The position numbers and the translations under genes were made by a program. From positions 192,001 to 256,000 of the forward strand of contig JAZDCY010000014.1 in NCBI GenBank assembly GCA_036679645.1: a DNA stretch of 64,000 nt. The letters run 5' to 3'. The notes under the pieces are model-generated. The model worked only from the letters and a program-made list of their open reading frames with translations, was not told the DNA's origin and did not search any database. This document shows, in pieces, positions 4,321 to 64,000 of this stretch (positions within the stretch are counted from its first letter, which is position 1; every line of letters begins with the position of its first letter). Source of the stretch: Gemmatimonadota bacterium (lineage in GTDB: Bacteria > Gemmatimonadota > Gemmatimonadetes > Gemmatimonadales > GWC2-71-9).

Positions 4321-4618
4321 GCGGAATAGGCGTCTCGATGGCGATGGCGCGGCTGCGCAGCGTGTCACTAATACAATGGAAAGGAGGACCGTCCCCGGAT
4401 GTCGAATGAAGGTCGAGGAAAACGAGGTCGTTCCTGCCGCGCGCAGCCGCTCCACCCGCTCGAGACCGTTGCCCCGCACGATGGGAAGAGACGGGTTGGA
4501 CCGCCTCCCCCACCCCTCTATCTTCCGTCGGCCATTCGGACCCGTACGGCCCGCAGCGGTGTATGTTCTCCCGCGACGTGCCCGACGACGGCAACACGAC
4601 GTCGGCGTCGGCAGAACG

Positions 4619-6823: not shown

Positions 6824-6895
6824 CGGCGGACGAGACCCCTCCACCCCCCGGCTTGCCTGCCATTCCGGGGCTGGCGATATTCTCTGGTCGTTTCC

Positions 6896-6967
6896 GGCGG
6901 TATCGTCTAGGGGTGAGGACGCGGCCCTCTCAAGGCCGAAACACGGGTTCGAATCCCGTTACCGCTA
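6896..6967 (+). tRNA. tRNA-Glu(CTC)
   Basis: GGCGGTA/TACCGCT acceptor stem, anticodon loop CTCTCAA, GGTTCGAATCC T arm. Confidence 0.93.
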
Positions 6968-6980
6968 TCGCCAATCCTCC

Positions 6981-7052
6981 GCCCCCATCGTCTAACGGCT
7001 AGGACACCACTCTTTCAAGGTGGTAACAGGGGTTCGATTCCCCTTGGGGGCA
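6981..7052 (+). tRNA. tRNA-Glu(TTC)
   Basis: GCCCCCA/TGGGGGC acceptor stem, loop CTTTCAA, GGTTCGATTCC T arm. Confidence 0.95.
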
Positions 7053-7060
7053 TCGGCCGG

Positions 7061-10000
7061 CTACCAGCCCCGGCCTGACCGAACGAGTGCTTCCGCGTCC
7101 TGCGGCTCCATTGGCCCGGAGAACAGGAACCCCTGCACGTGTTCGCATTCGAGCGTCTGGAGGAACGCACGCTGCTCCTCCGTCTCCACCCCCTCCGCCA
7201 CGACCGCCATGCCCAGGTTGCGCGCCAGCGTCACGATCGTCCTGACGATCTCGGTGTTCTCTTTATCGATGCCCACGCGACCGACGAACGACTGGTCGAT
7301 CTTGAGCGCGTCCAGACTGAACCGGTGTAAGTAGCCGAGCGAAGAGTATCCGGTCCCGAAATCGTCGACCTGCACCTGGATGCCGGACGCCTTGAGTTCA
7401 TCGAGCAGGCGTACGCTGGCCTCCGCTTTATCCATGAGGACGCTCTCGGTGATCTCGAGTTTCAGGGACGAGGCCGGGAGACCCGTTACCGCCAGCGCAT
7501 CGGCCACGCTCTCGACGAGTCCGGTCTCGCCAAACTGCTTGGGCGACAGATTGACCGAGATCAGGAGCGGCGGATCGCCGTTCCGCGGGATGTCCATCCA
7601 GCGAGTAGCCTGGCGGCACGCCTCCCACAGCGCCCACTGACCAATCTTGACGATCAGGCCGGTCTCTTCGGCGAGTTGAATGAATTCGGTTGGGGGAACG
7701 CAGCCCCGTTCGGGGTGCTCCCACCGCAGCAACGCCTCGAAACCCGCGAGTCGTCCCGTTGCGAGCGTGATGATTGGTTGATAGACGAGCCTGAATTCGT
7801 TTCGGTCGAGCGCGTGCCGCAGGTCCGTCTCCGTCTTGAGCAGCGACATTGCCCGCTCGTGCATGTCTGCATTGAAGATCTCGTGCTCGGCTGTCCCGTG
7901 CGACTTGGCGCGGTACATCGCCGTGTCGGCGTCGCGCAGCACCTCTTCCGGCCGGCGGTACCCGTCGTTCGAGAGCGTAATCCCAATGGAGACCGACGTG
8001 AAAACCTCGTGCCCGCCCAGCGAGAACACCGCCATCAGTTCCGATTGAATGCGGTCGGCAATGGCGATCGCGTCGTCCTCATCGACGATGTCGTCCAACA
8101 GCACGGTGAACTCGTCTCCGCCCAATCGCGCCACCGTATCGCCCGGTCTGAGAGAGGCAGACAACCGGTGGGCGACCTCGATCAATAGCTGGTCGCCCAG
8201 CATGTGCCCCAGGCTGTCGTTGATGACCTTGAAGCGGTCCATGTCGAGAAACAGCACGGCAAACTGATAGTCCTTGCGCCGCTTGAGACGCGCGAGCGAC
8301 CGCTCGAGCAGGTTGGTGAAGAGCGCGCGATTGGGAAGACCGGTCAGGGCGTCGTGAAACGCATCGTGGATCAACCGCTCTTCGGCGAGCTTACGGTCGG
8401 AGATGTCGGTCTGCGACCCGGCAATCCGGGTGGCGATGCCGGCGCCATCCCGCTCCACGACCCCGCGGCACAGCACCCACCGGTACGATCTGTCCGCGTG
8501 CAGGATGCGATGCTCGTTCTCGAAGTGCGGTGCCCGACCCGTGACGTGAGCATCGATATCGGTCCGTAGCCGATCGACATCCTCGGGATGCACGATAGAG
8601 AACCAGTCCTCGCTGCGGTCGCCGATCTCCTGCTCGCCCCGCCCGAGCTGGGCACGCCAGCGGGGCGAATAGTAGACGCGGTCGGTCTCGAGGTTCCAAT
8701 CCCAGAGCCCGTCGTTTGCGCCGCGGGCCGCCAAGGCGTAGCGCTCTTCGCTCTCCCGCAGCGCCTGCTCGGTCGCCCGGCGATCGGTCACGTCGCGAAC
8801 CATCCCGCGGAAACCGATGGTGAGGCCCGCCTCGTCGCGCACCGGGCTGACGGACGCCTCGACCTGACGAAGCGTGCCGTCACCGCCAGTCACTTCCCAA
8901 TCGAAGATGCGCGCCGATGCACCCGTCTCATACACGTCGTGGAACGTGGCGAACACACGCCGCGCATTGATCGCGTCCGTGTACTCGCGATAGTGCAATC
9001 CCCGCAACTCCCCGGCGGGGTACGCGAGAATCCGCTGCAGGGCGCTGTTGAACGAGATCAGTACGCCGGCAGCGTCAACCTCGTAGTAGCCGTCCTCGAT
9101 CGTCTCGAGAATGGAACGGTATTGCTCTTCGCTACGTTGTAGAGCGAACTGCGCGCGCTTGCGGTCTGTGATGTCGTTGGTGAGGGCCAGGAGACAGCGC
9201 TCGCCACCCCGCTCGATCACGTCCGCGGAGAAGAGCCCCGAGCGCTCTTCGCCGCTCTTTGTGCGGAACGTGTACTCGAAGTCGCGCACCATGCCACAGC
9301 ACTCCAGCAGGTCACACACGCGCTCCCGCTCGGCCGGATTGGCCCACAGCCCGATCTCCAGAGTCGTCCGCCCGATGACGGCCTCACGCTCGTGTCCGGT
9401 GATCTCGACGAACGCGTCGTTCACCTCGATGATCCGTCCGGTTTCGAGCGCGCTGATGGTGGCGGGCCCGGGCGTGGACCGGAACGCGGTGGAGAATTTC
9501 TCTTCCGAGGCCTGAAGCGCCCGAAGCGTGTCGTTCCGCTCGGTGACATCGCGGTAGATGGCGTACACCGCGATCTGGCCGCCCTCGTAGTGGATGGGCG
9601 TTCCCAGCACCGAGACCTGGACGAGCGACCCGTCCTTGCACCGCCGGGCCGTCTCGAAGCTGACATGGTCTCCGCTGGCAACCCGGCGCGTAGCGTCCTG
9701 CGCCTCGGCCCGAAGACCTTTGGGCGCCAGCAGATCGTCCAGCGCCTGCCCCACCGCCTCCGTCTGGCTGTACCCGAACAACTCCGTGAACGCCCGGTTG
9801 ACCCGCATGACGCGACTGTCGTTGTCCGCGAGCACAACCGCCTCGGGCGTGCTCTCGAAGAGCTGATCGAGAAGCGCCCGATCCGCCCCGGCGGCATGGG
9901 CCCGCACACGTGCCGGCACAGGTGCCTCCGGAAGCACCGGTTCCCGCCGGCGGTGGGAGAGCGCCCAGCGGGCTGCCGTGGCCACTGCGGCGAACGACGC

Positions 10001-10081
10001 GACCGGGAAAGTCACGGTGACCGTCCCGGCGCGGGGAACTGCAGATTTCCGCCACTGAAGGCGCGCATGCGCCAACTCCAT
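7061..10081 (-). CDS. Multi-PAS diguanylate cyclase/phosphodiesterase (4x PAS, GGDEF, EAL); true start probably ~150 nt downstream
   Basis: Four PAS/PAC repeats, HDALTGLPNR, GGDEF, FEALLRW, DDFGTGYSSL. Confidence 0.95.
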   Translation of the reverse strand: MELAHARLQWRKSAVPRAGTVTVTFPVASFAAVATAARWALSHRRREPVLPEAPVPARVRAHAAGADRALLDQLFESTPEAVVLADNDSRVMRVNRAFTELFGYSQTEAVGQALDDLLAPKGLRAEAQDATRRVASGDHVSFETARRCKDGSLVQVSVLGTPIHYEGGQIAVYAIYRDVTERNDTLRALQASEEKFSTAFRSTPGPATISALETGRIIEVNDAFVEITGHEREAVIGRTTLEIGLWANPAERERVCDLLECCGMVRDFEYTFRTKSGEERSGLFSADVIERGGERCLLALTNDITDRKRAQFALQRSEEQYRSILETIEDGYYEVDAAGVLISFNSALQRILAYPAGELRGLHYREYTDAINARRVFATFHDVYETGASARIFDWEVTGGDGTLRQVEASVSPVRDEAGLTIGFRGMVRDVTDRRATEQALRESEERYALAARGANDGLWDWNLETDRVYYSPRWRAQLGRGEQEIGDRSEDWFSIVHPEDVDRLRTDIDAHVTGRAPHFENEHRILHADRSYRWVLCRGVVERDGAGIATRIAGSQTDISDRKLAEERLIHDAFHDALTGLPNRALFTNLLERSLARLKRRKDYQFAVLFLDMDRFKVINDSLGHMLGDQLLIEVAHRLSASLRPGDTVARLGGDEFTVLLDDIVDEDDAIAIADRIQSELMAVFSLGGHEVFTSVSIGITLSNDGYRRPEEVLRDADTAMYRAKSHGTAEHEIFNADMHERAMSLLKTETDLRHALDRNEFRLVYQPIITLATGRLAGFEALLRWEHPERGCVPPTEFIQLAEETGLIVKIGQWALWEACRQATRWMDIPRNGDPPLLISVNLSPKQFGETGLVESVADALAVTGLPASSLKLEITESVLMDKAEASVRLLDELKASGIQVQVDDFGTGYSSLGYLHRFSLDALKIDQSFVGRVGIDKENTEIVRTIVTLARNLGMAVVAEGVETEEQRAFLQTLECEHVQGFLFSGPMEPQDAEALVRSGRGW

Positions 10082-10228
10082 AACTCGTTGTAAAATAGTG
10101 ACTTACGTGCCTCATCCGTTTGGAGGAGGCACGCTGGCTCACAGACCCTCTTGAGTTTGCGACAAACCCGGCTTCGCTGCTGTGCGGTGCCGCACACCGG
10201 CCAAAACGGCGCCTGACCATGTTCGAGC

Positions 10229-11449
10229 GTGCCAAACCGCATGTTGGCCCTGGTCGTCCCCGAGGGCGTGGTCCTGCTGCTGGTCGTACTCGCACTTCGG
10301 TCGAGCGCGCTCACGGCGCACGCGGGGGCGTTCGTCGACCTCTACCCGCTGGGCGTTCTCGTGGCCGGCGTGGCACTCGCGTGGCGCTTCGAGCGGAGCG
10401 GCGTTGTGCTGGGCTTACTGGTCCTCGCCGCGGCAGCCGGTGGACTCGCCTGGAGCACCACCCGACAGCCGGGTGTGGCCTCCGCGATGCCGCTCGTTGC
10501 GGGCGTGCTCGTGCCGCTCAACCTGATCGCGCTCGGCCTCATCCGCGAACGCGGTCTCTGGACGCGTGAGGGCGGAGTGCGGCTCGTAGTCCTGATCGCC
10601 CAGGCCGGGGTGGTCCTTGCACTCCTGACACGCGGACCCGTAGACCTCGCCCCGATCGACTTCCACGTACTTCCCGCATGGCTCACGCGCTGGACGGGAC
10701 TCGGGGATCTTCCGCTGACCGTACACGTCGCAGCGGTGGGACTGTTTGCGGTGCGCGCGTTCTTCTCCGGTCGCCCAATCGATCGCGGGTACCTATGGGC
10801 GAGCGTGGGGAGCCTGCTGGCGTTCTCCGCCGCGCCATCCGTTGCAACTCCGATCGCTACGGCGCTGTTCGCGACCGCGGGCCTGGCACTCGCCATCGCC
10901 GTGGTGGAGTCATCCTACTCGCTGGCCTACCGCGACGGGCTGACGGGACTACCGGGCCGCCGAGCACTGGACGAGGCCCTGGACCGAACCCCAGGGTGCT
11001 ACACGGTGGCGATGGTCGATATCGATCACTTCAAGCGGTTCAATGACCGCCACGGTCACGCAGTGGGCGACCAGGTGCTCCGCATGGTTGCCAGGGTGCT
11101 GGGGAAGGTCGGGGGAGGCGGCCGCGCCTTTCGTTACGGTGGAGAGGAGTTCGCCATTCTCTTCCAGCGGAAGGCGGTCGATGAAACCGAGCCGTACCTC
11201 GAGCGTCTCCGGAGCGGCGTCGAGCAGTCGCACTTTACCGTTCGAGGTCGCGATCGCCCCAAGAGCAAGCCCCGGCAGCCACGGAAACGGCGTTCCGCAT
11301 CCCGGCTGTCGGTGACGGTGAGTATCGGCGTCTCGGCCAGAAACGGACGGGATCTCCCACCGATGGAGGTGGTCAAGGCAGCCGATGCGGCGCTGTACAG
11401 GGCGAAGCGGGGGGGCAGGAACCGGGTGCGCTGTGACAGGGCGATGTAA
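10229..11449 (+). CDS. Membrane-bound diguanylate cyclase
   Basis: Multiple hydrophobic helices then DGLTGLP, DIDHFKRFND, RYGGEEF, ADAALYRAK. Confidence 0.92.
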   Translation: MPNRMLALVVPEGVVLLLVVLALRSSALTAHAGAFVDLYPLGVLVAGVALAWRFERSGVVLGLLVLAAAAGGLAWSTTRQPGVASAMPLVAGVLVPLNLIALGLIRERGLWTREGGVRLVVLIAQAGVVLALLTRGPVDLAPIDFHVLPAWLTRWTGLGDLPLTVHVAAVGLFAVRAFFSGRPIDRGYLWASVGSLLAFSAAPSVATPIATALFATAGLALAIAVVESSYSLAYRDGLTGLPGRRALDEALDRTPGCYTVAMVDIDHFKRFNDRHGHAVGDQVLRMVARVLGKVGGGGRAFRYGGEEFAILFQRKAVDETEPYLERLRSGVEQSHFTVRGRDRPKSKPRQPRKRRSASRLSVTVSIGVSARNGRDLPPMEVVKAADAALYRAKRGGRNRVRCDRAM

Positions 11450-11667
11450 GGGGGGAAGCCCAGGGGCAGGTGGGGACGGAAGGCAGGGCCACGGTTGAGA
11501 AAACCACGGCCGCTGCAAAAGGGAGCGCGCGCATGGGACCTCCGGGAAGACGAGGCGGGGACAGCCGCACTATGGGAGGCGGTACGGGGGAGGTCGACGA
11601 GGGGCGATGAAAGGGGCGCAAATGGAACTGGTCGGCGGCCTCGCTGAGCTCTATTCTTCAGCTGCAC

Positions 11668-11742
11668 AGACGCTCAGGTGCTCAGACGCTCAGGTGCTCA
11701 GGTGCTCAGGTGCTCAGGTGCTCAGACGCTCGGGTGCTCAGA
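11668..11742. repeat. 8-bp tandem repeat (GCTCAGGT/GCTCAGAC) about 9 copies
   Basis: Directly visible, upstream of aminotransferase RBS. Confidence 0.9.
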
Positions 11743-11755
11743 TGGAGAGGTGGAT

Positions 11756-13038
11756 ATGAGAGGCAGGCGTTCCTTCCTACGGGGTATCACGGGGGCTGGG
11801 GCAGCGGCGGTATTTGGGGACCTAACGACGGCTCGGGAAGCGGTTGCCGCTCAGATTGCCGCAACACCTCCACTCGCCGCACACCGCTCACCGCGCACGC
11901 TTGCGAACGAGTACCTGCTCGACCCGGACATCGTCTACCTCAACCACGCCTCGATCGGGACCATTCCGCGCGTCGTGCACGAGGCCCACACGCGGTATCT
12001 CGCACTCTGCGAGGCGAACCCGTGGCTCTACATGTGGGGGGGTGCGTGGGACGAACCGCGCGAAGCGGTCCGGGACGCGGCGGCACGCTACCTGGGTGCA
12101 ACGCCTGCCGAGATTGCCCTCACGCACAATACGACCGAAGGGTTCAACACGATCGCCCAGGGCCTGCCGCTCGGACCGGGTGACGAGGTCGTCTTCAGTT
12201 CGCTCAATCATCCCGGGGCGAGCGTCTGCTGGCATCATCGGGCGCAAGAAAGAGGGTTCGCGGTCAGACAATTCACCTTTCCTATCGCCGACGCGCCCTC
12301 GCTCACCACGCACGACGTACTGAACGTCTACGATGAGCACATCACGCCGCGTACGCGTGTGCTTGTCTTCCCGCATATCGACAACATGATCGGCCTGCGT
12401 TACCCGGTCCGGGAGCTGACCGACCTCGCACGATCGAAGGGTGTCGAGTTCATCGCGGTGGATGGCGCGCAGGCGGTGGGCATGATCCCGATCGACATGC
12501 ACGCGCTCGGCGTGGACTTCTATGCCGGGAGTCCGCACAAGTGGATCCAGGCTCCCAAGGGCTTGGGCGTGCTGTACGTGCGCCGGGCGGTGGAGGACAC
12601 GCTCCGGCCAATGTGGGTGACCTGGGGCCAGGAGCGTTGGGCCGGTAGCGCACGCGTGTTCGAGGATTATGGTACGCGTAACCTGGCAGCGGCCCTGGCG
12701 CTCGGCGACGCCTTCGATTTCCAGACGCGATTGGGCCAAGAGACGAAGGTGCAGCGCTACCAAACGCTCTGGCAGCACGCGCGCTCGGTGGTCGAGGCCT
12801 CGCCGCGGCTCATCTGGCGAAGCCCACGTTCGTGGGAGCGCGCAACGTCACTGTTCGCCGTGAGGTGCGCGACATCGGGATCGCGCAGGTCTACCGCGCT
12901 CTGTGGCCCGATCAGGGCGTCGTCTTTCGCGCCTTTGCCGACCCGGAATTGAACACCGCACGCCTCTCACCAAACACGTTCACGACCGAAGAGGATCTCT
13001 CCCGCGCGCTCGCTGCCATGGCGTCCGTCGGGCGCTGA
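11756..13038 (+). pseudogene. Tat-exported PLP aminotransferase class V (cysteine desulfurase/isopenicillin N epimerase-like), frameshift near 12861
   Basis: MRGRRSFL Tat motif, YLNHASIG, VDGAQAVG, SPHKW (PLP Lys); C-terminus (EVRDI...ARLSPNTFTTEEDL) continues in another frame. Confidence 0.85.
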
Positions 13039-53117: not shown

Positions 53118-53705
53118 ATGCTCGACAGCATCGCGAACTTGATCGAGGCCTCGGGGCCGCTGGTCTACATCCTGGCCCCGCTGTTCATGGTCTTCGTCGC
53201 GATCCTGCCGCTCCCGGCGGAGGTCCCGGCGATGGTCAACGGCATGGTGTTCGGTCCGGCGCTGGGAACGGTGATGACGTGGGGCGGTGCCATGATCGGC
53301 GCTGCCGTGAGCTTCGAGCTCGCGCGACGCTATGGGCGGCCGCTCGCGCAACGGGTTCTCCCGGGAGATGCACTCGGCAAGGCCGACCGGTTCGTCGTCG
53401 CCACCGGATGGGGCGGGCTGTTGACCGCGCGCCTGATTCCCGCAATTGCGTTCACCGCGTTGAATTGGGGACTCGGTCTCTCAGGCGTGCCGCGCCGGAC
53501 GTTCTTATGGACCACCGCGGTCGGGATTCTGCCCGGAGCCATTGTCTTCACCGCGACGGGGACCGGATTGGGAGCGCTGTACCGCGCCCACCCGTCTGTG
53601 GCCTATGGGCTCGTTGCGGCGGCGCTAGTGGTGTTCGTGTGGGCGGGGGTGCGGTACTGGCGCAACCGGGAGGCTAATCCCTCGCGAGCGGAGCCGGCTC
53701 CCTAG
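53118..53705 (+). CDS. TVP38/TMEM64 (DedA/VTT) family membrane protein
   Basis: LPLPAE...GMVFG, FELARRYGRP, RLIP, FLWTTAVGILP. Confidence 0.88.
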   Translation: MLDSIANLIEASGPLVYILAPLFMVFVAILPLPAEVPAMVNGMVFGPALGTVMTWGGAMIGAAVSFELARRYGRPLAQRVLPGDALGKADRFVVATGWGGLLTARLIPAIAFTALNWGLGLSGVPRRTFLWTTAVGILPGAIVFTATGTGLGALYRAHPSVAYGLVAAALVVFVWAGVRYWRNREANPSRAEPAP

Positions 53706-54556
53706 CTACCGTTCTCCAAGGCCACCCTCATCTCGTTGGCCGACTCCCACCGTTCCTCGCGTACCTTCCTCAGCGCCTTGCCGATCCCTTCGGCGAGCAC
53801 GGGCGGCGTGTCCTTCCGGAACTCGCGTACGTCGGGCGCCTCCTCCGTTTGCTGCAGTCGCAGCACCGTCTCTTCGCGCTGGTGGACGAATGGCGGGCGT
53901 CCGGCAAGGCACTCGAACAGCACACACCCCATGGAGTACACGTCGGTTCGGTAGTCGATGTCCTCGGCCCCGGCAACCTGCTCGGGACTCATGTACGCTG
54001 ACGTCCCAACGGTGAAGCCCGACCGCGTGAGGCGCGTCGATCCCGCGGCCGCGATCGCCTTGGCAATGCCGAAGTCGAGCAGCATGGCCCCGTTCGCGCT
54101 CAGCACGATATTCTCAGGCTTGACGTCGCGATGCATGATACTGTTGGCGTGCGCATACCCCAGTGCGGCGAGCATGTCACTGGCAATACGACACGTGTCC
54201 GACACCGACGCGCGCCGTACCCGATCGAGGTGCTGACGTATGTTCGGCCCCTCAATAAAATCCATCACATAATAGATGAAATACTCCGCTTCGCCCGAGT
54301 CGAGCACCCGTGCAATCTGTGGGTGATCGAGTTCCCGCAGCATCTGTACCTCGCGCTGGAACCGATCTGCAGTGACCGTCACCGCCAACTCGGGATGGAG
54401 CACCTTGACCGCCTTGGGCTCACCGTTCGGGTCACGCGCAAAGAACACCCGCGACGCCCCACCGCGCGCAATCAGACGCTCGACCTTGTAACGGCCTTCG
54501 AGCGCCTCCTGAATCAGCGGGAGCAACTCACGACGGGCGATGGTACACCTCCGCAA
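53702..54556 (-). CDS. Stand-alone cytoplasmic Ser/Thr protein kinase
   Basis: AVKVL, HRDVKPEN, DFG, GTSAYMSPEQ, DVYSMG. Confidence 0.92.
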   Translation of the reverse strand: MRRCTIARRELLPLIQEALEGRYKVERLIARGGASRVFFARDPNGEPKAVKVLHPELAVTVTADRFQREVQMLRELDHPQIARVLDSGEAEYFIYYVMDFIEGPNIRQHLDRVRRASVSDTCRIASDMLAALGYAHANSIMHRDVKPENIVLSANGAMLLDFGIAKAIAAAGSTRLTRSGFTVGTSAYMSPEQVAGAEDIDYRTDVYSMGCVLFECLAGRPPFVHQREETVLRLQQTEEAPDVREFRKDTPPVLAEGIGKALRKVREERWESANEMRVALENGS

Positions 54557-54577: not shown

Positions 54578-56638
54578 TCACAGCAGCAAGTCGTTCCGAA
54601 TCCGCTTCCGCACCGCCCACCACATGGCGAGGAGAACGCTGGTTTGCCGCACGACGATCTTTGCCTCGCCGGTGACGCCCGGATACAGTCCGTCAAGACC
54701 ACTGGGCACGCGGATCCGCGCCTCGAGCGCATCGCTGGAATCGGCCGCCGGCGCGACGGAGTGCACCGGGGCCTCAACCGCGCGCCGCGGTGTCGCGTAT
54801 GGCAGCAGCGACGCACGCTGCCCCGCCGCCACGAGCGTTGCCCCGGCCCGGTCGAGCGTCACGCGTAACTCCAAAGAATCGAGCACGCTGACGGACGCCA
54901 CCGTTTCCCCGGCCTCGAACGCCCGCCCAACTCGCTCGCGGAGCCGCCGCGTCACCAACACACCGCTCACCGGCGCGCGCAGGGTGAGCCGCCGCACCCG
55001 CTCGCGCGCCCCGAGCAGCCGGGCGGCCGCTTCGTCCCGCGCCAATTCCGCTTGGCGGAGCGCGGCATCAAGCCCGAGCGCTCGCGCGCGCAGCGCCGAC
55101 ACACCCAGCGAATCGACGACGCGCTCGAGCGACACAACCTCGCGTTCCAGTGTGAAGTTACGCAACCGCACCACCACCGCTCCGGCATCGACCGAGTCGC
55201 CTTCGCCAGCATAGATCTCCGTAAGCACACCAGCATCGGGCGACGTTAGCGGCGCCTCGAAAACTGGTGCTGCAACGAACCTGCCCTTCACGAGCAGCGG
55301 CCATGGGACTAGTACCGACATGACGAGGAGCACGACCGCGAGCCCAGCCACGGAACCGACTACGCGCCCCCTCAAGAGACGAGCACGATGCTCACGGAGC
55401 GATGTGGCGACAGCGCGTGCCCACTCGCGGATCGTGGTGCGCAACATTACCCAGAGAAGCAGCACGAAGCCCAGCACGCCGACCACACCGAAGGCCCGGC
55501 TGGCCCATCCCATTACCACCGTCGCCACGAGGCCGAGGATGGCAAAGATGTAAGCGATCGCCAGAACACCATACGTCACCAGCGCACGGCGTTCGCGAAG
55601 ATCCGCAACAGGGGGCTCGGGCACGTTGAGCCGAATCACATGGCGCCGGATGAGCCATGTGACGTGCGCCAGCGCCCGCTGCCGCAGGTTGGGGATCTCC
55701 AGGTAGTCACTGAGGGCGTAGTACCCGTCGAGCGGTATCAGCGGGTTTGCATTCGCGATCACCGTCGTCGCACCCCCGACCAGGACCGCAAAGAACGCCA
55801 CACGGGAGATCACACTCGACGGATCCACGATGACCCACACGATGGCGGCGATTCCCGCCACCACGAGTTGAATCCACGAGCCTGCCGCCGTGACCCAGAG
55901 CCGCTGCGAGAGTTTCGAGAAGGTCCATGCATCGTTGACGTTGCAGTAGAACGCCGGCTGGAAGTACAGCAGCATTGCGCCCAACTCGTGTACCTGTCCG
56001 CCAAAGTACTTGCACGTAACGCCATGTCCGAGTTCGTGTATGATGATGACGACCATCGCCGTCCCCCAGAAGAGGACGATGTTCTGGAGCGTGTAAAACT
56101 CGACCGAGTACATCGCCGTAATGCCATTGGCGATGTCCCCCCACCGCAGCACGAAAACGCCGAGGTATACGGCGAAGAGCGCAAGCGAGATACCAATAAA
56201 CGTCCGCGTGAAGAACAGCCGCAACACCGGCATCCAGCGGTCGAACAACTCGTCGGGATCACCCGCCGACCACCGCATGCGGAGCAGGCTCCCCTCGTAG
56301 TGCGTGCCCTTTACGCGCCGATGCCGTTCCGCACGCATTCGTTCCATGAGCAGCGTGGATTTCTCGCCGAGTGTGCGCTCGAACAACTCCATCTTGGAGA
56401 GCCGACCGGCGAACTTCTGTAGCTTCGCCTCGCTTAGCGGAAGCCCCTGCTCCGCCAACCCGGCGGCGAGTTGAGCGAACGTGTGCTCTCCTGTGAACTG
56501 CTGCATGATGAGGACTTCGAGTGGCTTGAAACGAAAGTACTTGTGGGTCTCCGGGTCCTTGACGATATACGTCTGCTCGCCCCGGTACTGCTGCACGACG
56601 ATAATCAGATCGTCGCGAAGTTTGGGTCGTCCCCTCAA
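54578..56638 (-). CDS. PqqD/RRE-like domain + M50 (site-2) metallopeptidase + HlyD-type membrane fusion domain
   Basis: N-terminal YIVKDP..YFRF winged-helix pattern, HELGH, NANPLIPLDGYY, lipoyl-like halves and LYPGVTGEAKI. Confidence 0.88.
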   Translation of the reverse strand: MRGRPKLRDDLIIVVQQYRGEQTYIVKDPETHKYFRFKPLEVLIMQQFTGEHTFAQLAAGLAEQGLPLSEAKLQKFAGRLSKMELFERTLGEKSTLLMERMRAERHRRVKGTHYEGSLLRMRWSAGDPDELFDRWMPVLRLFFTRTFIGISLALFAVYLGVFVLRWGDIANGITAMYSVEFYTLQNIVLFWGTAMVVIIIHELGHGVTCKYFGGQVHELGAMLLYFQPAFYCNVNDAWTFSKLSQRLWVTAAGSWIQLVVAGIAAIVWVIVDPSSVISRVAFFAVLVGGATTVIANANPLIPLDGYYALSDYLEIPNLRQRALAHVTWLIRRHVIRLNVPEPPVADLRERRALVTYGVLAIAYIFAILGLVATVVMGWASRAFGVVGVLGFVLLLWVMLRTTIREWARAVATSLREHRARLLRGRVVGSVAGLAVVLLVMSVLVPWPLLVKGRFVAAPVFEAPLTSPDAGVLTEIYAGEGDSVDAGAVVVRLRNFTLEREVVSLERVVDSLGVSALRARALGLDAALRQAELARDEAAARLLGARERVRRLTLRAPVSGVLVTRRLRERVGRAFEAGETVASVSVLDSLELRVTLDRAGATLVAAGQRASLLPYATPRRAVEAPVHSVAPAADSSDALEARIRVPSGLDGLYPGVTGEAKIVVRQTSVLLAMWWAVRKRIRNDLLL

Positions 56639-57597
56639 TGCGCCACCGGCGCCAGCCGTTCGCCGGCGGCGAGCCCGCGCACCACCTCGACACGCCCATC
56701 CTCGAGCGTCGCGCCCAACGTGACACTGCGCAGCGAGGTCCGCCCGCCCGCCCAGACGAGGACATAGCCCTCCTCCGCAACGACCCCAGCGGGGACGACG
56801 AGGATCTGGCGCCTGGTAGCGGCAAGACGCACACGGACACTGGCCCCCGGCTCTAGAGGAGTACCCCGCGCGAGCTGCACGACGACCTCCCGCGTACCGC
56901 TCGACGGATCGATCGTCGGTGAGACGCGGTCGACCGTCGCCGGATGTTCACTCCCATCCAACGAGACGACGGTAACCTCGGTCCCCCGTTCGATCGTGCT
57001 CGCACCTTCCGGGAGCTGCACCGATGCGCGCAGCGGTTGTAGCGCGCTGACCCGGAAGAGCGAGTCGAGCTCTTCCACCAGGCGTCCACGTCGCACGACG
57101 CGCGCGGTCACCACGCCGCTGAACGGCGCGATGGCGCGTGTCAGGTCGTAATTGCGCTGCGCCTGGCGGGTGCCAAGCTCCCACCGCCGATACTCCAGCT
57201 CGGCAAATTCGGAGTCGGCTACGGCTACGGCTCCCGTGCCCGCCAACTCGCGGAAGCGTTGAACCTGACGCTCTGCGTTGGCCAGGTTGGCCTGGGCGTC
57301 CGCGAGCGCAATCTCCTGATCGACGCTCTCGAGCCGGGCAAGTACCTGCCCTTCTCGCACGCGGTCGCCAATATCCACCAGCACTCGCTCGACGATGCCC
57401 ATGGATCGCGCGTACACGTACGCGTCGTGCTCCACATACAGTTGCGTCGGCAACTCGAGCGGCAGATCGACAGTGGCCGTGTCCACCACGATGACCGGTG
57501 CCGCCGCCACGGATGGCTCGGGGGTCTCCGGCACGGCGTCACCGCCGCACCCGCTGGTGATCCACGCCATCGCCGTCGCCGTCGCATACCATCTCAT
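56635..57597 (-). CDS. RND/HlyD periplasmic adaptor (MFP) lipoprotein
   Basis: ITSGC lipobox, VDIGDRVREGQVLARL, APFSGVV, VSPTIDPSSGT; 4-nt overlaps with both neighbours. Confidence 0.9.
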   Translation of the reverse strand: MRWYATATAMAWITSGCGGDAVPETPEPSVAAAPVIVVDTATVDLPLELPTQLYVEHDAYVYARSMGIVERVLVDIGDRVREGQVLARLESVDQEIALADAQANLANAERQVQRFRELAGTGAVAVADSEFAELEYRRWELGTRQAQRNYDLTRAIAPFSGVVTARVVRRGRLVEELDSLFRVSALQPLRASVQLPEGASTIERGTEVTVVSLDGSEHPATVDRVSPTIDPSSGTREVVVQLARGTPLEPGASVRVRLAATRRQILVVPAGVVAEEGYVLVWAGGRTSLRSVTLGATLEDGRVEVVRGLAAGERLAPVAH

Positions 57598-59531
57598 GGA
57601 ACGAGCCTCCACCAGAGCAACCGCGCCCACCGTGTGGGCGCTCGCAGTAGCCGGCTGAGCACCGAAGTCGGTGCGGTTAGCACCTTGGCGTGCGCTGCCA
57701 TGCCGGGTCGCAGGACGCCCTCGTCATTGGGAACGAGACCTCGGATAACGAAATACACCTCCGACGTCGTCTCGACCGGCAGCGGCGGCACGAAGGTCAC
57801 GCGCCCCTCAAACGTCCGCTGCGGCAGTGCATCCACACGCAACCGAATGCGCTGGCCGACCTCGACCCGATTGATGTCTCGTTGCCGCACTCCCAGCTCC
57901 AACTCGAGCGAGTCGGTGCGACCAAGGGCAAGAACCGACTCACCGGCTTCGGGTCTGGTGCCGACCAGTTCCTCGGGTCGCGCCGTCAACACGACGCCAT
58001 CGACCGGCGCGCGTACCGTAGTCGCCGCAATCTCTTCGTCCAGCAGCGCCAGCTGCCGGCCCAGTGACACCACACGCGCGCGCTGGATGCGCTCCGCCGT
58101 TGCATCGTTGCGTGCGTCCGCTGCCGCCGCGCTACGTTCGGCAATCTGCAGCGTCGCGTCAGCCGCCTCCCGATCCGCCCGCAGCTCTACAGCACGCAGC
58201 AGGACGAGCGGGTCGCCCCGCGTGACCGCCTGTCCCTCGCGCACCAGGACCCGTTCGATCACGCCCGGGACGATGGGCCGTGCCTCGGAATAGGTCGCGG
58301 CGCGGAATGTGGGTGCGGCACCCGTCACCCGGAACGGCCAGCGAATGAGCGTGATCGCGGCGAGCGCGACGAGAGCGGTCACTGCGTAGACGGCCACGCG
58401 GCGGCGCGGCAGCGCCAGCAGTTTCCTCTTCTTCTCCGCGAGGGCGCCCAGCATGTCGACCAGCGGCACCTGGTTGTACAGCTCGGCGTTGCGCAGTGCC
58501 ACGGCCGTCTGGTTGGCGAGAATCGCCACCATCTCGCGCTGCGTGTCGGAAGCGAACGCCGGTCGCTTCGCCTCGAAGAGCAGCACACCCAGGGCACCTT
58601 CTTCATCGACCAGTGGGAGATACAACCCACTGCGGATCTCATCCGTTGCCAGTCCCTCACCCGCCGCGTTGACGAAGGCCCGTTCGTCGTCGGTCGAGAC
58701 CGCTTCCCGGTCCGCCAGGTAGAAAGGCTCGCCACGCCCCAGGACCCAACTGCCGCGGTCCTGGAGCCGCCGCACCCCCGCGTCCTTGGGATCGATTTCG
58801 TCCTTCCCGGCGATCGCGCGGATCTCGTACTTGGCCCGGTCCACCAGGCCGATGGCGCCGATCTCGAAATCCAGCGCACGGGTGGCGAGGTTCACCACCG
58901 ACGTCAGGATACGATCGAGGTCCAGTGTGGAGGTGACCTCCCGGCTGATCTCGAGCAACATCGCGAGATCGTGCGCGCGCTTTTCGGCGGTGTGCAACTG
59001 CGCGTTACGCAGCGCGACCGCGGCACTGCGGGCCAGGCCCTCGAGGAGCAACCGATCGCCCTCCTCGAAGATACCGGCCCCAGTCACCTTGTTGGTGACC
59101 TGAATGGAGCCGACCGTTTGGCCCCGGACCACCATTGGCGCTGCCAGCACGCCGGTCGTGATCATGGTGCTGGATCGGTCCACGCGGTCCTGGAAGCGAG
59201 GGTCCTGCATGGCGTCGGCCACGATCGTGCTGCGCTGCTTCCGGGCCACATCCCCCACAAAACCTTCCCCGATGGGAACCTCGCTGCCCACCAGCTTCTG
59301 GCTTGCCGCGCCCAGCGCCAACCGGCAGCGCAAGATCTCCCCTTCGGCAATCCAGATCGACCCGCCCTGCGCCCCCACCGCGTCGAGTACTCTGTTGAAG
59401 ACCGTGGGCAGCAACTCGTCGAAATCGAGCGAGGATGAGAACTCTTGAGATATGGAATGCAGAAGGCGGAGGCGGTCGACTTCACCCTGAAGCCCGTCGC
59501 CAGCACCTGGTTGCACCGGATCGTCGTTCAT
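57594..59531 (-). CDS. GAF-GAF-HlyD family secretion adaptor
   Basis: Two GAF domains (SSLDFDELL...VALRNAQL; STLDLDRIL...VALRNAELY), TM, then HlyD motifs, LRPGMAAHAKV. Confidence 0.9.
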   Translation of the reverse strand: MNDDPVQPGAGDGLQGEVDRLRLLHSISQEFSSSLDFDELLPTVFNRVLDAVGAQGGSIWIAEGEILRCRLALGAASQKLVGSEVPIGEGFVGDVARKQRSTIVADAMQDPRFQDRVDRSSTMITTGVLAAPMVVRGQTVGSIQVTNKVTGAGIFEEGDRLLLEGLARSAAVALRNAQLHTAEKRAHDLAMLLEISREVTSTLDLDRILTSVVNLATRALDFEIGAIGLVDRAKYEIRAIAGKDEIDPKDAGVRRLQDRGSWVLGRGEPFYLADREAVSTDDERAFVNAAGEGLATDEIRSGLYLPLVDEEGALGVLLFEAKRPAFASDTQREMVAILANQTAVALRNAELYNQVPLVDMLGALAEKKRKLLALPRRRVAVYAVTALVALAAITLIRWPFRVTGAAPTFRAATYSEARPIVPGVIERVLVREGQAVTRGDPLVLLRAVELRADREAADATLQIAERSAAAADARNDATAERIQRARVVSLGRQLALLDEEIAATTVRAPVDGVVLTARPEELVGTRPEAGESVLALGRTDSLELELGVRQRDINRVEVGQRIRLRVDALPQRTFEGRVTFVPPLPVETTSEVYFVIRGLVPNDEGVLRPGMAAHAKVLTAPTSVLSRLLRAPTRWARLLWWRLVP

Positions 59532-59659: not shown

Positions 59660-59803
59660 CTACCCGAGGCGGAACGGGGCGATCCGCTCTTCCAGCTCTT
59701 CAGCGGTCAGCTCGAGGGCCTCGGCATCTTTGCCGGTGACTTTCTTGAGCTCCTCTTTCTGCTCATTGGTGAGCTCGATGCGGATTTTCTTCGCGTCGGA
59801 CAT
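59660..59803 (-). CDS. Putative precursor peptide 1 (47 aa, ELEERIAP-FRLG)
   Basis: AAGGAGG RBS; MSDAKKIRIELTNEQKEELKKVTGKDAEALELTAEELEERIAPFRLG; two paralogs adjacent. Confidence 0.88.
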   Translation of the reverse strand: MSDAKKIRIELTNEQKEELKKVTGKDAEALELTAEELEERIAPFRLG

Positions 59804-59848
59804 TACTGCCTCCTTCGAAGGGTTGTGACGGATGAATCGAACGCCACA

Positions 59849-59901
59849 AAGATGGTTGGGAGTCGTGAAAACCCCGTGAATCTCCACCGGGGTATCGTGA
59901 A
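59849..59901 (-). promoter_or_regulatory. Promoter with three TTCACG direct repeats and CATCTT -10 (copy A)
   Basis: CGTGAA at 59864, 59875, 59896; AAGATG at 59849. Confidence 0.75.
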
Positions 59902-59916
59902 GGCCACAAGCGGCCC

Positions 59917-59955
59917 AACGAAAGGCGCCGGATCCCTGTCGGAGGACCCGGCGCC
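59917..59955 (-). terminator. Terminator after peptide 2
   Basis: GGCGCCGGGTCC...GGATCCGGCGCC stem then TTTCGTT. Confidence 0.65.
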
Positions 59956-59980
59956 CCGGAGTTGGTGTCTCGATCCTTGG

Positions 59981-60136
59981 CTATATGCCGAGCCCCGGGC
60001 CGCGCATGGGTGCGATGCGCTCTTCCAACTCTTCGACGGACAGCTCGATGGCCTCGGCATCTTTGCCAGTGGCCTCGCGCACGGCTTTCTTCTGCTCGTC
60101 CGTCAGGCTGATCTTGAAGCTGGGATTGGTCGTCAT
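59981..60136 (-). CDS. Putative precursor peptide 2 (51 aa, ELEERIAP-MRGPGLGI)
   Basis: Own translation, missing from ORF track: MTTNPSFKISLTDEQKKAVREATGKDAEAIELSVEELEERIAPMRGPGLGI; GGGGAG RBS. Confidence 0.88.
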   Translation of the reverse strand: MTTNPSFKISLTDEQKKAVREATGKDAEAIELSVEELEERIAPMRGPGLGI

Positions 60137-60151
60137 GGTAACAGTCTCCCC

Positions 60152-60301
60152 TTAGCTCAGGCGGAAACGTGAGGGAGCGATCCGCTCTTCCAACTCTTCG
60201 GCGGTCAGCTCGAGGGCCTCTGCATCTTTGCCCGTAATCTTCTTGAGCTCTTCCTTCTGCTCCGCGGTGAGCTCGATGCGGAACTTCTTGTCGTCGGACA
60301 T
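60152..60301 (-). CDS. Putative precursor peptide 3 (49 aa, ELEERIAP-SRFRLS)
   Basis: AGGAGG RBS; MSDDKKFRIELTAEQKEELKKITGKDAEALELTAEELEERIAPSRFRLS. Confidence 0.88.
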   Translation of the reverse strand: MSDDKKFRIELTAEQKEELKKITGKDAEALELTAEELEERIAPSRFRLS

Positions 60302-60344: not shown

Positions 60345-60397
60345 AAGATGACCTGGCGGCGTGAATCCACCGTGAATTCGACTTGCCGGATCGTGAA
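60345..60397 (-). promoter_or_regulatory. Promoter with three TTCACG direct repeats and CATCTT -10 (copy B)
   Basis: CGTGAA at 60360, 60371, 60392; AAGATG at 60345; spacing identical to copy A. Confidence 0.75.
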
Positions 60398-60439: not shown

Positions 60440-62689
60440 GTGGACCTTCAACTGACGCTGCTGGGGCCCCCGCGCCTCACGATGGATCCGGAACCCGAGG
60501 CCGTGCCACGCCTTGGTGCGAAACCCATTGCCCTGCTTGCATTTCTGGCAATGGAGCCGGGCCCCCACGCCCGCGACGAGTTGGCGGGGCTCCTGTGGTC
60601 AGATTCCCCCAACGATGCAGCCCGGGCTTCGCTGCGTCAGGCGATCCGCCAAATCCGAGGCGTCGTGGGCGAACGGCTCCAGGCGGGGCGCACCGCGGTG
60701 GAGCTGGACCCACCTATCCCGTGTGACGCCCGTGCGTTCCTGCAAGCCGTAAGTGAGGCGCCGGAGACTGCCGTCTCCTACGCCGCTGACCGGTTCCTTG
60801 CGGGCTTCTCGGTGCGCCATGCCCCGGCCTTCGAGGAGTGGACCGATACAACCCGGGAACGGTTGCGCCAGGCGTTCCGCGATGCGCTGCGCGCCGCCAC
60901 GCTCGGCGACATAGGTCGCTCGCGTTGGCGGGATGCGGCCCGGTGGGCGGAGCGGTGGATTGCAGCCGATCCCCTGTCCGACGAGGCGGTGCGCCACGCC
61001 GCCCAGGCGTGCTACATGGCCGGCGATACCGGCGAGGCGCTGGCCCAGTTTCAGCAATACCGCGAGCGGCTGGCCAACGAGACCGGCATGGAACCGGCAG
61101 ACGCGCTGCGCGAGCTGCTGGAAAGGATTGGACCCACTCCTCCGGTGGCCCAGCTGGCCGCCCCGCCGCCGGATACCGATCTCCCGAAACGGGGGTTCGT
61201 ATCGAGCCTGATCGGCCGGGAGGCGGAGTGGGAGCGGCTCACACAGGTGTGGCGCGAGGCGGCGGCGGGCGCATGTCGGACCATGCTGATTCAGGGCGAG
61301 GCGGGAATCGGCAAGACGCGGCTGGCCGAGGAACTGCTGCAATGGACCGCGGCAGAGGGAGCAACGGCCCTCCGCGGCAGGGGATACGATCCGGAGAGCG
61401 GCCTGCCCTATCAGCCCGTGGCCGACGCGCTGCACGGCGCACTGCAGGCACCGGGAATGGCGAGCGCGGCCCCTGAATGGCTCGCGGAGCTGGCCCGGAT
61501 CGTCCCGGACGTGCGCGAGCGCTTCCCGGGCCTTCCGACTGCCGCCGGGGCCGGCGATCCAGACCGGCGCGGCCGGCTGTTCGAGGCGGTGGCGCAGGCG
61601 ATCCTGGGACTCACGTCGGAGCGAGCGGTAGTGCTCCTAATTGACGATCTCCAGCGCTGCGATCCCGAGACGTGCGCCCTGCTCCATTTCCTCACGCGGC
61701 GGTTGGCGCGTGCTCCGATCCTGATTCTCGCCACCGCGACACTGGGCGAGATCGAGCGCGCGACCCCAGCCTCGCGCCTCTGTCGCACGCTCAAGGGCGG
61801 CGGTGCCGCGATCACCGTCTCTCCGCTGTCCGAAGCCCAGGTGTGGCGCGCCATTCGTGAGTTGGGCCGTATTTCGAGCCCCGATGGTGCGCGGCGCTTT
61901 GCGCGCCGCGTCCATGCTGTGACCGACGGCAATCCGTTCCACATCCTGGAGCTGCTCAAGGCCCTCTTCGCGCAGGGCATGCTGCAGACCGACCCGGCCA
62001 CCGGCGAATGGGTCACGACCACCGCGACCGGGGATGCTCCGTACGATCATGTGCGCATGCCGGCCACCGTGCACGACGCCGTTGCCGAGCGGTGCACGCG
62101 GCTGCCATACGAGCTGCGGGACCTGCTGGTGACCATGGCGGTGGCGGGCCGGCCCGTATCGACCGGCTTGCTCTCGCACGTGCACGGGACCTCGCGGCTG
62201 CGGGCCGCGGCGCTTGCCGACGCGCTGGTCGACCGCCTCCTCCTGGCGGAAGACAACGGTATGTACGGCTGCGCGCATCCCATTGTGCAGGATGTCGTGC
62301 GCGAGGACCTGACACCCGCACGAAGAGGCGAGGTACACCGCGCGATCGCGCTTGCTCTCGATACGCTCGCCCGCGACAGCCGGGGCGGCTGCCGACCCGG
62401 CGAGATCGCACGGCACGCGGAGCGGGGTGGCGAACTCGCCCTCGCGTTTCGTTGTGCGCTGGAAGCTAGCGACCTCGCGGTAGAAAATGGCGCCTACGAG
62501 GAGGCGCTCTCGTGGCTGGATCTTGCCGGAAGTGCGGCAGATTCCGAGACCGACACCGCCGCGGTCCACGAACGCACGGCGCGCCTCATGGAACGCACCG
62601 GCTGGCCCGAGCCGCCCGTGGGCGGCCACCGGAGCGGCACGCCGGCCGCCGGCTTCAGCCGGCAGGACATCGATCTGCGGCCGTCCTGA
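60440..62689 (+). CDS. SARP-like transcriptional activator (wHTH + BTAD + AAA ATPase)
   Basis: LTLLGPP, ALLAFLA, RDELAGLLW, ARASLRQA, DPLSDEA; LIGREAE, GEAGIGKT Walker A, LIDDLQ Walker B, TDGNPF. Confidence 0.9.
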   Translation: MDLQLTLLGPPRLTMDPEPEAVPRLGAKPIALLAFLAMEPGPHARDELAGLLWSDSPNDAARASLRQAIRQIRGVVGERLQAGRTAVELDPPIPCDARAFLQAVSEAPETAVSYAADRFLAGFSVRHAPAFEEWTDTTRERLRQAFRDALRAATLGDIGRSRWRDAARWAERWIAADPLSDEAVRHAAQACYMAGDTGEALAQFQQYRERLANETGMEPADALRELLERIGPTPPVAQLAAPPPDTDLPKRGFVSSLIGREAEWERLTQVWREAAAGACRTMLIQGEAGIGKTRLAEELLQWTAAEGATALRGRGYDPESGLPYQPVADALHGALQAPGMASAAPEWLAELARIVPDVRERFPGLPTAAGAGDPDRRGRLFEAVAQAILGLTSERAVVLLIDDLQRCDPETCALLHFLTRRLARAPILILATATLGEIERATPASRLCRTLKGGGAAITVSPLSEAQVWRAIRELGRISSPDGARRFARRVHAVTDGNPFHILELLKALFAQGMLQTDPATGEWVTTTATGDAPYDHVRMPATVHDAVAERCTRLPYELRDLLVTMAVAGRPVSTGLLSHVHGTSRLRAAALADALVDRLLLAEDNGMYGCAHPIVQDVVREDLTPARRGEVHRAIALALDTLARDSRGGCRPGEIARHAERGGELALAFRCALEASDLAVENGAYEEALSWLDLAGSAADSETDTAAVHERTARLMERTGWPEPPVGGHRSGTPAAGFSRQDIDLRPS

Positions 62690-62749: not shown

Positions 62750-64000
62750 TCAACAGCAATCAGCACCTACCGTGCAACACGCGTACGAGACACGATCCTC
62801 GTGCGGTGCGAGTAGAGCGAACATGTCGGCGTAGGGCGGCCGCTGCAGTTTCGCGACCGTGTCGGTGCAGACCTCGTAGGGCTCGTTCCGCATGAACTGG
62901 TGGCCTTCCTCGTCGACGAAGATCTTCCCCGGACCGAGATACACCGCCCGATGTCCCTGAAACACGCATCCGTCCATCTTCTCGAACTTGTACCCGGCCA
63001 CCGTGACCGACGAAAAGGCGTACCCTTCGACTTCCTTCCAGAACGACTTCTCCTGCACCGTGAGGCCGTAGAATCCGGCGCGCTCCAGCTCGGCCATGAA
63101 CTGTTCTTCGGTCAGCGCGCCCACGAGACATTCACCCCATAACTTTGGGTTCACGCGCAAGTGCGGGGGGACGGGCCGATCGCTCACAATGTCGGATATC
63201 ACGAGCCGCCCGTGGTCGGCGAGTACGCGCCAAACTTCCGCGAACACGCGGGGCTTGTCCGGCGAGAGGTTCACGACACAGTTGGAGGTGACGACGTCGA
63301 CGGTTCCTGACTCGACCGGGATGGCCTCGAGAAATCCCTTGCGGAACTCCACGACGTCGTACCCGAGGTTCGTCGCCACGGCGGGCCTGCATGAATTGGC
63401 AACCGACAACATCTCGTCGGTCATGTCGATGCCGATGGCGCGGCCGCCGGCCCCGACCAGCTTCGCCGCAATGAAGACATCGATCCCCGCGCCGGAGCCC
63501 AGATCGAGCATCATCTCGCCGAGCTGCACCGCCGCACGCGTAACCGGCGACCCGCAGCCGTAGAAACGATCGAGCACGTCCTGCGGGATGTGGTCGGTCA
63601 TGCTCCGGTCGTACGACGTCGGGCAACACAGATCGGCCTTGGGGGACTCGGCCGCGGCACCGTAATATTCACGCACCGCGCGGCGCGGTTTGTCCACGTC
63701 GAACGACAGCACGCAGTTGGAGTGCAACGGCAACACGGGTCGCTCGGCGAGGGCGCCGTCAGCGGTGCCGCAGGCAATCGCACCTTCCCCCATGGCGTGC
63801 AACACGACCGGCGCGTCGTACCCCGACCGGTGATTCAGTCGATCGCGTTTTTCCCGCCCTAGCGTGGTCATTACGCGGCGGATCAACGCCTGCGTCACCG
63901 GATAGTAGGGATCCGGGGCGAACGGATCGCCGCCGGAGAAACACCACGCGTGCTCCCAGTCGCCGCCACCCGTCAGGAAGCGCAACGGATCGTCGTGGAC
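62750..64000 (-). CDS. ArsM-like SAM-dependent methyltransferase with large N-terminal extension (5' end beyond window)
   Basis: LCCP, FYGCGSP, LDLGSGAGID, GIDMTDEML, SNCVVNLSPDK, WGECLVGAL, terminal Cys pairs; frame open to window edge. Confidence 0.85.
   Translation of the reverse strand, partial: VHDDPLRFLTGGGDWEHAWCFSGGDPFAPDPYYPVTQALIRRVMTTLGREKRDRLNHRSGYDAPVVLHAMGEGAIACGTADGALAERPVLPLHSNCVLSFDVDKPRRAVREYYGAAAESPKADLCCPTSYDRSMTDHIPQDVLDRFYGCGSPVTRAAVQLGEMMLDLGSGAGIDVFIAAKLVGAGGRAIGIDMTDEMLSVANSCRPAVATNLGYDVVEFRKGFLEAIPVESGTVDVVTSNCVVNLSPDKPRVFAEVWRVLADHGRLVISDIVSDRPVPPHLRVNPKLWGECLVGALTEEQFMAELERAGFYGLTVQEKSFWKEVEGYAFSSVTVAGYKFEKMDGCVFQGHRAVYLGPGKIFVDEEGHQFMRNEPYEVCTDTVAKLQRPPYADMFALLAPHEDRVSYACCTVGADCC

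Follow-up and report, generated by a model that had tools for sequence, protein, structure and literature searches.

The window analysed here, a 64,000-nucleotide stretch of a Gemmatimonadota contig, carries three short genes whose products share a constrained leader and end in a hypervariable, coding-like tail. They belong to a fixed cassette that includes an operator and a membrane protease with intact motifs. We consider it reasonably probable that the products are activator-driven, leader-cleaved and exported peptides, likely unmodified, with targets beyond the cassette selecting for variation in the tail. We found no description of these peptides or of such a system in open-licence papers and bioRxiv, and this is likely an undescribed secreted-peptide system.

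Three short genes in a fixed cassette

The locus has the following layout:

53702..54556 (-): Ser/Thr kinase, ~275-284 aa; often the last cassette gene
54578..56638 (-): predicted RRE-like domain, M50 intramembrane metalloprotease and HlyD adaptor in one protein, 686 aa; H201, E202, H205; NPxxPxDG at 298-305
56635..57630 (-): RND-type membrane fusion protein, 331 aa
57594..59531 (-): GAF-GAF-HlyD adaptor, 645 aa
59604..59638 (-): hairpin after peptide 1 and before GAF-HlyD, 15 bp, z -4.8, weak U-tract
59660..59803 (-): precursor peptide 1, 47 aa; 43-aa leader ending ELEERIAP, tail FRLG
59849..59901 (-): predicted SARP-type promoter B; TTCACG at 59901, 59880 and 59869, CATCTT at 59854-59849
59926..59957 (-): hairpin after peptide 2, 13 bp, z -3.3
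59981..60136 (-): precursor peptide 2, 51 aa; tail MRGPGLGI
60152..60301 (-): precursor peptide 3, 49 aa; tail SRFRLS
60345..60397 (-): predicted SARP-type promoter A; TTCACG at 60397, 60376 and 60365, CATCTT at 60350-60345
60440..62689 (+): divergent AfsR/EmbR-like SARP-STAND regulator (BTAD, AAA_16), 749 aa from GTG at 60440

The first-pass annotation had proposed ORFs of 47, 51 and 49 aa with good ribosome-binding sites, and these are real genes: all three start with ATG, have homologues, and carry GGAGG, GGGGAG and GGAGG (peptides 1, 2 and 3) at 5, 9 and 4 nt upstream. It had also noted that peptides 1 and 3 are mis-started in its ORF list, and a first-start ORF caller likewise makes them too long, at 75 and 138 aa. 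The shared motif is as it described (26 of 52 aligned columns are invariant), but the sharp divergence it saw in the tails is blunted by the FRL common to tails 1 and 3. The peptide-1 unit, promoter plus gene, is a duplicate of the peptide-3 unit, and these 336-337 nt are missing from close relatives' contigs from two studies. Peptide 2 lacks an operator of its own, and its ribosome-binding site lies immediately 3' of the peptide 3 stop. The hairpins after peptides 1 and 2 are related in sequence, and the first, which the terminator scan did not call, is likely a terminator or attenuator; strong hairpins in these positions would favour precursor over exporter transcripts.

The leader is under the anticipated purifying selection. 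Over its last 36 codons, peptides 1 and 3 differ with pS 0.42 and pN 0.042, and pairs picked by neighbouring gene also have a constrained leader. We rely on these two comparisons because the dN/dS of 0.10 from 47 pairs is biased low, those pairs having been chosen by leader identity. No Pfam or NCBIfam model reached its cut-off for peptides 1-3, the best NCBIfam match of the leader being a weak one to the Os1348 NHLP-clan model (17 bits, cut-off 40). The predicted structure has a strand-helix-strand-helix leader (pLDDT 83); a fold search with this model returned nothing at E<=0.001, and the matches in the protein atlas were all unnamed clusters of similar size.

Further copies are plentiful, with 54 homologues and 872 clusters at 50% identity (E<=0.001). 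That the peptides are fragments of a longer known protein is rejected: the ORFs have their own ribosome-binding sites and stops, and of the 11 longer family matches (from 7,993 scored candidates of at most 2,000 aa) nine appear to start too early or to run on into the gene that follows. The remaining two are a repeat protein of 474 aa and P0065, a protein of 442 aa in which sigma-70 region 2 and a TIR domain come after the second half-leader. In P0209 the leader runs into a segment that we take to resemble ribosomal protein L29, and this sequence may be a chimeric assembly.

Counting matches of any strength, the family occurs in 53 of 301 Gemmatimonadota genomes. The best 79 genome loci include 77 labelled Gemmatimonadota, together with a 1.6-kb contig labelled Acidobacteriota and an unclassified contig; 54 pattern matches on viral contigs included no relatives, and no RNA data set was listed among the sequencing runs that carry the peptides. 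The recurring order is divergent AfsR-like activator, one to eight peptides, GAF-HlyD, adaptor, RRE-M50-HlyD and often the kinase. Over the 79 loci, many of them cut by contig ends, BTAD was found in 64, GAF-HlyD in 60, the adaptor in 53, M50 in 52 and the kinase family of 53702..54556 in 33, while SecA-like matches occurred in two and TolC and DUF3467 in none. Among genomes with peptides at E<=1e-15, 34/36 also encode the M50 fusion, and such peptide matches occur in only 2/262 of the genomes without it (same 301 genomes, related genomes counted separately). Another 17 of the 301 have weaker peptide matches only. Two of these have the protease; in the 15 without it the matches are mostly to half the leader, which suggests that the leader's first half occurs without export too.

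Several other gene arrangements were seen. Small proteins with the first half-leader and no ERIAP occur in L007-L011 and L168 and as the third ORF of L036, L047 and L083. Solo peptide genes with TTCACG repeats upstream lie several kb from the cassette in L018, L024, L037, L046, L052 and L079, and solo copies are also found on other contigs. Within the window, an arsenite-methyltransferase-like gene (62750-63985, minus strand) converges on the regulator and lies outside the conserved cassette.

The leader and its putative protease

The family leader ends in ELxxEELEERIAP. Annotated daptide precursors on a Streptomyces plasmid have the leader end ELEMQELEALEAP in register with it, and the daptide paper, in its available part, gives the leader motif as ELExMEAP with the Pro numbered -1 and describes leader removal by an RRE-dependent (RRE-fused) site-2 intramembrane peptidase (10.1101/2023.03.08.531785). 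Five of the eight motif residues are alike in the same register. By profile the match is short and weak (hhalign E 0.016, probability 2.9), and peptides 1-3 had no match to daptide HMMs at E<=1. The daptide leader is a closer match to the family leader than LEPR-XLL; the first-pass annotation mentioned neither it nor the processing cassette and the operator.

The protease also resembles that of daptides. Its best family match is the daptide protease NF041824 (204 bits, under the cut-off of 300), and HExxH (201-205) and NPxxPxDG (298-305) are invariant in 40/40 full-length homologues. In the structure model (pLDDT 85.6) the N-terminus consists of three strands followed by three helices, which we take to be the RRE/PqqD topology; together with a weak PqqD-related match (E 0.017), this predicts an RRE-like domain. 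The C-terminal part matches MexA/MacA adaptors in a fold search, where the listed matches were all to the adaptor and none covered the N-terminal domain. On the reading we favour, the protease would bind the leader and cut after the Pro of ELEERIAP, a site suggested by the P-1 register of daptides. The freed tails of 4-8 residues would be exported by way of the three HlyD-type adaptors, with a TolC from another part of the genome. The source genome (G000, 92.7% complete) has a single M50-HlyD protease of this kind, about ten TolC-family genes (21 domain matches), all away from the cassette, and one SecA on another contig.

Daptide clusters share with this locus several tandem short precursors and an adjoining RRE-fused M50 protease, and their leader end, EL..ELExxxAP with Pro at -1 (in the available part of the daptide paper), resembles that of the family. 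In contrast to daptides, whose C-terminal Thr is invariant, only 3/160 tails here end in Thr. The recurring cassette genes include no MpaB/C/D/M enzymes or ABC transporter, the protease is fused to HlyD, the tails are cationic, hypervariable and 3-26 aa long, and the host is a diderm with SARP-type control. A second comparison is with double-glycine/NHLP-clan leaders, which presumably share the Leu at -12 and -7 in the ELSxEELE frame. Those leaders end in xxGG and go with peptidase-ABC transporters, whereas here the end is RIAP and no C39-ABC transporter was seen in the cassette.

The first-pass annotation had likened LEERIAP to the LEPR-XLL motif of giant secreted proteins. This fares well by context: among the best plasmid homologues of the protease (11 of 82 records examined), five Alphaproteobacteria plasmids have a GAF-HlyD / RRE-M50-HlyD pair directly behind proteins of 4,000-12,700 aa. 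In these five loci a GAF-HlyD-type gene and mostly DUF3467 separate the giant gene from the protease gene, and SecA-like or TolC genes follow. Of the other six records, two are Streptomyces RiPP clusters, one has an ELWxxDGT-repeat gene accompanied by TolC and adaptors, and the last three have no adjacent tagged cargo in view. LEPR-XLL is present in 4/5 giant N-termini, its L-E-x-R aligning with the peptides' L-E-E-R, and four of the N-termini pass NF012209 or PF07595. By profile, however, the likeness is not significant (hhalign E 0.17). Peptides 1-3 did not match Planc_extracel PF07595 (E<=0.1) or LEPR-8K NF012209 (E<=1), and one family member, P0188, matched these models weakly, with E values of 0.024 and 0.16.

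The M50 fusion and its LEPR-XLL-locus counterpart are 27% identical over 585 aa (E 2e-50), and in BLAST the giant-associated proteases score 133-162 bits vs 100 for the daptide protease MpaP; in a 22-row protease tree MpaP forms a long branch whose position is not settled. As the same adaptor and protease machine stands behind the giant proteins, our peptides look like its smallest cargo, in a version without the SecA motor, and the family leader may sit between the daptide and LEPR-XLL forms. In both settings the cargo gene lies directly upstream with an LExR motif in register, but the cargo here is 47-51 aa rather than 4,000-12,700, its motif ends in AP and not LL, and no very long secreted protein follows the motif (7,993 candidates, none above 2,000 aa). 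The suggestion that LEERIAP is an export signal thus holds by context and is not supported as a general signal on other proteins of the source genome: a six-frame motif scan of this 92.7% complete assembly gave no plausible other carrier and no long LEERIAP protein.

A 2015 computational description reported a SecA_DEAD / Peptidase_M50-HlyD / GAF-HlyD / HlyD locus with a secondary SecA, and its available part names no substrate (PMC4452313); the string "Gemmatimonad" is absent from its main text. That locus, as far as the available text describes it, likewise groups three adaptor-bearing genes without an ABC transporter, but our cassette lacks the secondary SecA, DUF3467 and TolC found there or beside the giants. 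The system would act as a combination of a daptide leader peptidase with the HlyD locus of 2015, and it belongs to neither group. Daptide leader removal, the LEPR-XLL tag of giant proteins and the ABC-less HlyD locus would then come down to a single leader grammar and a single protease family. With a substrate of 49 residues the machine becomes open to experiment, unlike with one of 10,000.

TTCACG repeats and the AfsR-like regulator

Promoters A (peptide 3) and B (peptide 1) have TTCACG repeats 21 and 11 nt apart, a 9-nt spacer and a -10-like CATCTT. The 11-nt pair precedes the peptide in 65/65 loci with a BTAD regulator and no Crp gene, in 0/4 loci with a Crp-type gene and in 5/11 loci with neither regulator; it occurs in 0/659 upstream regions of other genes, a background from which regulator and GAF genes were left out. 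An alignment of 97 promoters shows 95% conservation of the A and 98% of the final T in the -10-like hexamer, which lay outside the operator search pattern. According to the available part of PMC10936776, direct repeats in SARP promoters are spaced by 11 or 22 bp and the last one stands 8 bp from the -10; the family's spacing of 11 and 21-22 with a 9-nt gap has this geometry. The promoter scan called no sigma-70 sites.

The N-terminus of the divergent regulator matches EmbR and AfsR, and the TTCACG repeats are likely the binding site of this activator. The regulator would switch on precursor transcription from them. As in the AfsK-AfsR-AfsS system of Streptomyces, a SARP plus nucleotide-binding regulator has a Ser/Thr kinase nearby, and direct repeats 11/22 bp apart stand just upstream of a weak -10 (PMC10936776, available part). 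As far as that text goes, our system differs in its repeat sequence, its 9-nt rather than 8-nt gap and its phylum, and its targets are precursor peptides coupled to an exporter. The conserved operator offers a handle for inducing the system and charting its regulon in a soil phylum that is abundant but poorly cultured.

The source genome has seven strict TTCACG pairs, of which only promoters A and B add a third copy. The other TTCACG-N5-TTCACG pairs (C37:30398, C60:20538, C66:42385, C4:122688 and C22:4681) are possibly weak regulon members or chance. A Crp-type regulator stands beside the peptides in L040, L049, L077, L082 and L176, and the four of these that were examined lack the TTCACG pair.

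Variable tails and their possible function

Tails mostly have 3-12 residues (range 3-26), and 32 of 168 have only three or four. Across 160 tails, GC3 is 0.84, equal to that of the leader, vs 0.65 past the stop; 115 carry a positive net charge and 15 a negative one. A pattern is also kept at positions +1 to +3. In pairs picked by neighbouring gene, the leaders are nearly the same and the tails usually unrelated, and tails are unrelated even between loci whose neighbouring genes are 95-98% identical and whose flanking DNA is almost the same. The clearest pair is L053/L057, where flanking non-coding DNA is almost identical and both tails are wholly different. Tails can also be stable within a lineage, as three database relatives keep SRFRLS or GRFRLS. 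We prefer to see the tail as a payload that would be under diversifying selection, perhaps through an arms race whose targets lie elsewhere than in the cassette. A counterpoint is that tails of three or four residues are small for specific effectors.

Two explanations for the variability were rejected. A synonymous peak near the tail, expected from cassette swapping or balancing selection, was present in L053/L057 only (17 pairs: 37/136 near vs 100/437 far, p 0.30). Nor do the tails look like captured pieces of host genes: against 6,760 G000 ORFs, 6/138 matched at E<=0.1 vs 9.0 in shuffles.

Could the tail be a peptide pheromone, a quorum or kin signal that returns to be sensed by the GAF domains or by the sensor region of the regulator, with positive feedback on the TTCACG promoters? 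Pherotypes typically have short cores that vary between strains, the cassette unites regulator, precursor and processing exporter, and each promoter has an operator. STAND regulators such as MalT and GutR are moreover activated by inducers (PMC10936776, available part). We nevertheless find this improbable. L053 and L057 have regulators that are 95% identical and GAF-HlyD proteins that are 97% identical, every 50-residue window reaching at least 88%, and no cassette protein has a variable patch to match the change of tail; this lack of co-variation speaks against a cognate receptor encoded in the cassette. The cassette has no conserved importer or membrane receptor either, and a pheromone leaves the Hcp-like tails described below unexplained.

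It is very doubtful that the leader is the active part, as a small folded AfsS-like regulator or an RRE-occupying decoy that tunes the machine, and the tail mere baggage. The coding GC3, positive charge and +1 to +3 pattern of the tails speak against it, as do their ability to change faster than flanking non-coding DNA and the subset that matches Hcp far above controls; the source genome also yielded no other cargo for the machine. Such a role would draw on the predicted fold of the leader (pLDDT 83) and on the first half-leader found on methyltransferases and on small proteins without ERIAP. The AfsR target afsS is, in the available part of PMC10936776, itself a regulator.

The first-pass annotation read the peptides as RiPP-type precursors. 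A conserved leader with a variable core is supported. Modification as a defining feature is not: the kinase is the only candidate enzyme at this locus and in the conserved cassette, and the tails have no modifiable residue in common. Among 160 tails, Cys occurs in two and Ser/Thr in 94; the tails of the window end in G, I and S, and tail 2 has neither Ser nor Thr. Against these facts, a true RiPP, with its tail modified before export by the cassette kinase, leader-bearing methyltransferases or enzymes encoded elsewhere, is distinctly improbable, even given the daptide-type leader end and RRE protease, the weak NHLP-clan match of the leader, the half-leader methyltransferases in some relatives' peptide arrays and the multi-core NHNET precursors in the family. 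The kinase may equally serve the AfsR-like regulator, as AfsK does (PMC10936776, available part). Exported tails would thus be unmodified on our preferred reading, with the counterpoint that the kinase, and methyltransferases in some relatives, could modify them.

The methyltransferases in question are PrmC/HemK-like and lie in the peptide arrays of L056 (11294-12049), L169 (7577-8326 and 9313-10107), L180, L185, L194 and L213. Their N-terminus resembles the first half of the leader, a possible sign of leader-to-leader docking of a tailoring enzyme. In a sub-family (P0062, P0156, P0164, P0188, L021, L081 and L230) the tails end in NHNET plus hydrophobic residues, and some of these are multi-core repeats of leader end, core and NHNET. 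In P0062, NHNET-type repeats stand behind an M6-protease-like domain.

Some longer tails resemble Hcp. Of 178 distinct tails of 8-26 residues, 21 match a profile of 11 Hcp sequences (shuffle p<=0.0034), vs 0-2 for six control profiles, which used fewer shuffles. With a 29-Hcp profile and a narrower leader pattern, 20/189 tails pass, from a set enriched by its query, and cover 100 of the 162 profile columns. The tails are as similar to one another (identity 0.34) as they are to Hcp (0.33), which is the expectation for independent draws or shared constraint and not for one ancestor. Whole-peptide Pfam scans gave sub-threshold Hcp matches in 3/36 (E 0.12-0.26) and one match to a T4-like tail tube segment (E 0.15). 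Arrays of peptides with Hcp-like tails lie inside full cassettes in L180 and L185; no full Hcp gene was found in 80 metagenome loci or in the two draft, possibly incomplete genomes richest in such tails. FRLG, MRGPGLGI and SRFRLS, the tails of the window, are too short for this scoring.

Because relatives load the same leader with Hcp-resembling segments, we give somewhat less than even odds to a role in conflict with other microbes. A broader proposal, which we hold to be unlikely, is a reloadable display or secretion platform, in which the leader is loaded with segments from or mimicking attackers' machines, and these are exported. The parts mimicked would be, with similarly low probability, the T6SS Hcp tube, a PAAR-like tip, the phage tail tube and type IV pilin, and the exported segments would act as assembly poisons, decoys or alarm signals. 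One RRE-read leader would then be common to daptides and giant LEPR-XLL proteins, the hosts would be soil and sediment bacteria, and this repertoire would have its trimmed, fast-cycling extreme in the ultra-short tails of the window. If Hcp-like tails are functional, bacteria would secrete mimics of injection-machine pieces.

Likeness to pilin, PAAR-like or tail-tube segments occurs in L056 (10349-10839), L064, L157, L188, L196, L234 and L249, in P0196 and L087, and in P0143. Some, such as IIAILIG and LLPAV, resemble what we take to be pilin N-terminal helices, and others presumably the PAAR-like DUF4150 motif.
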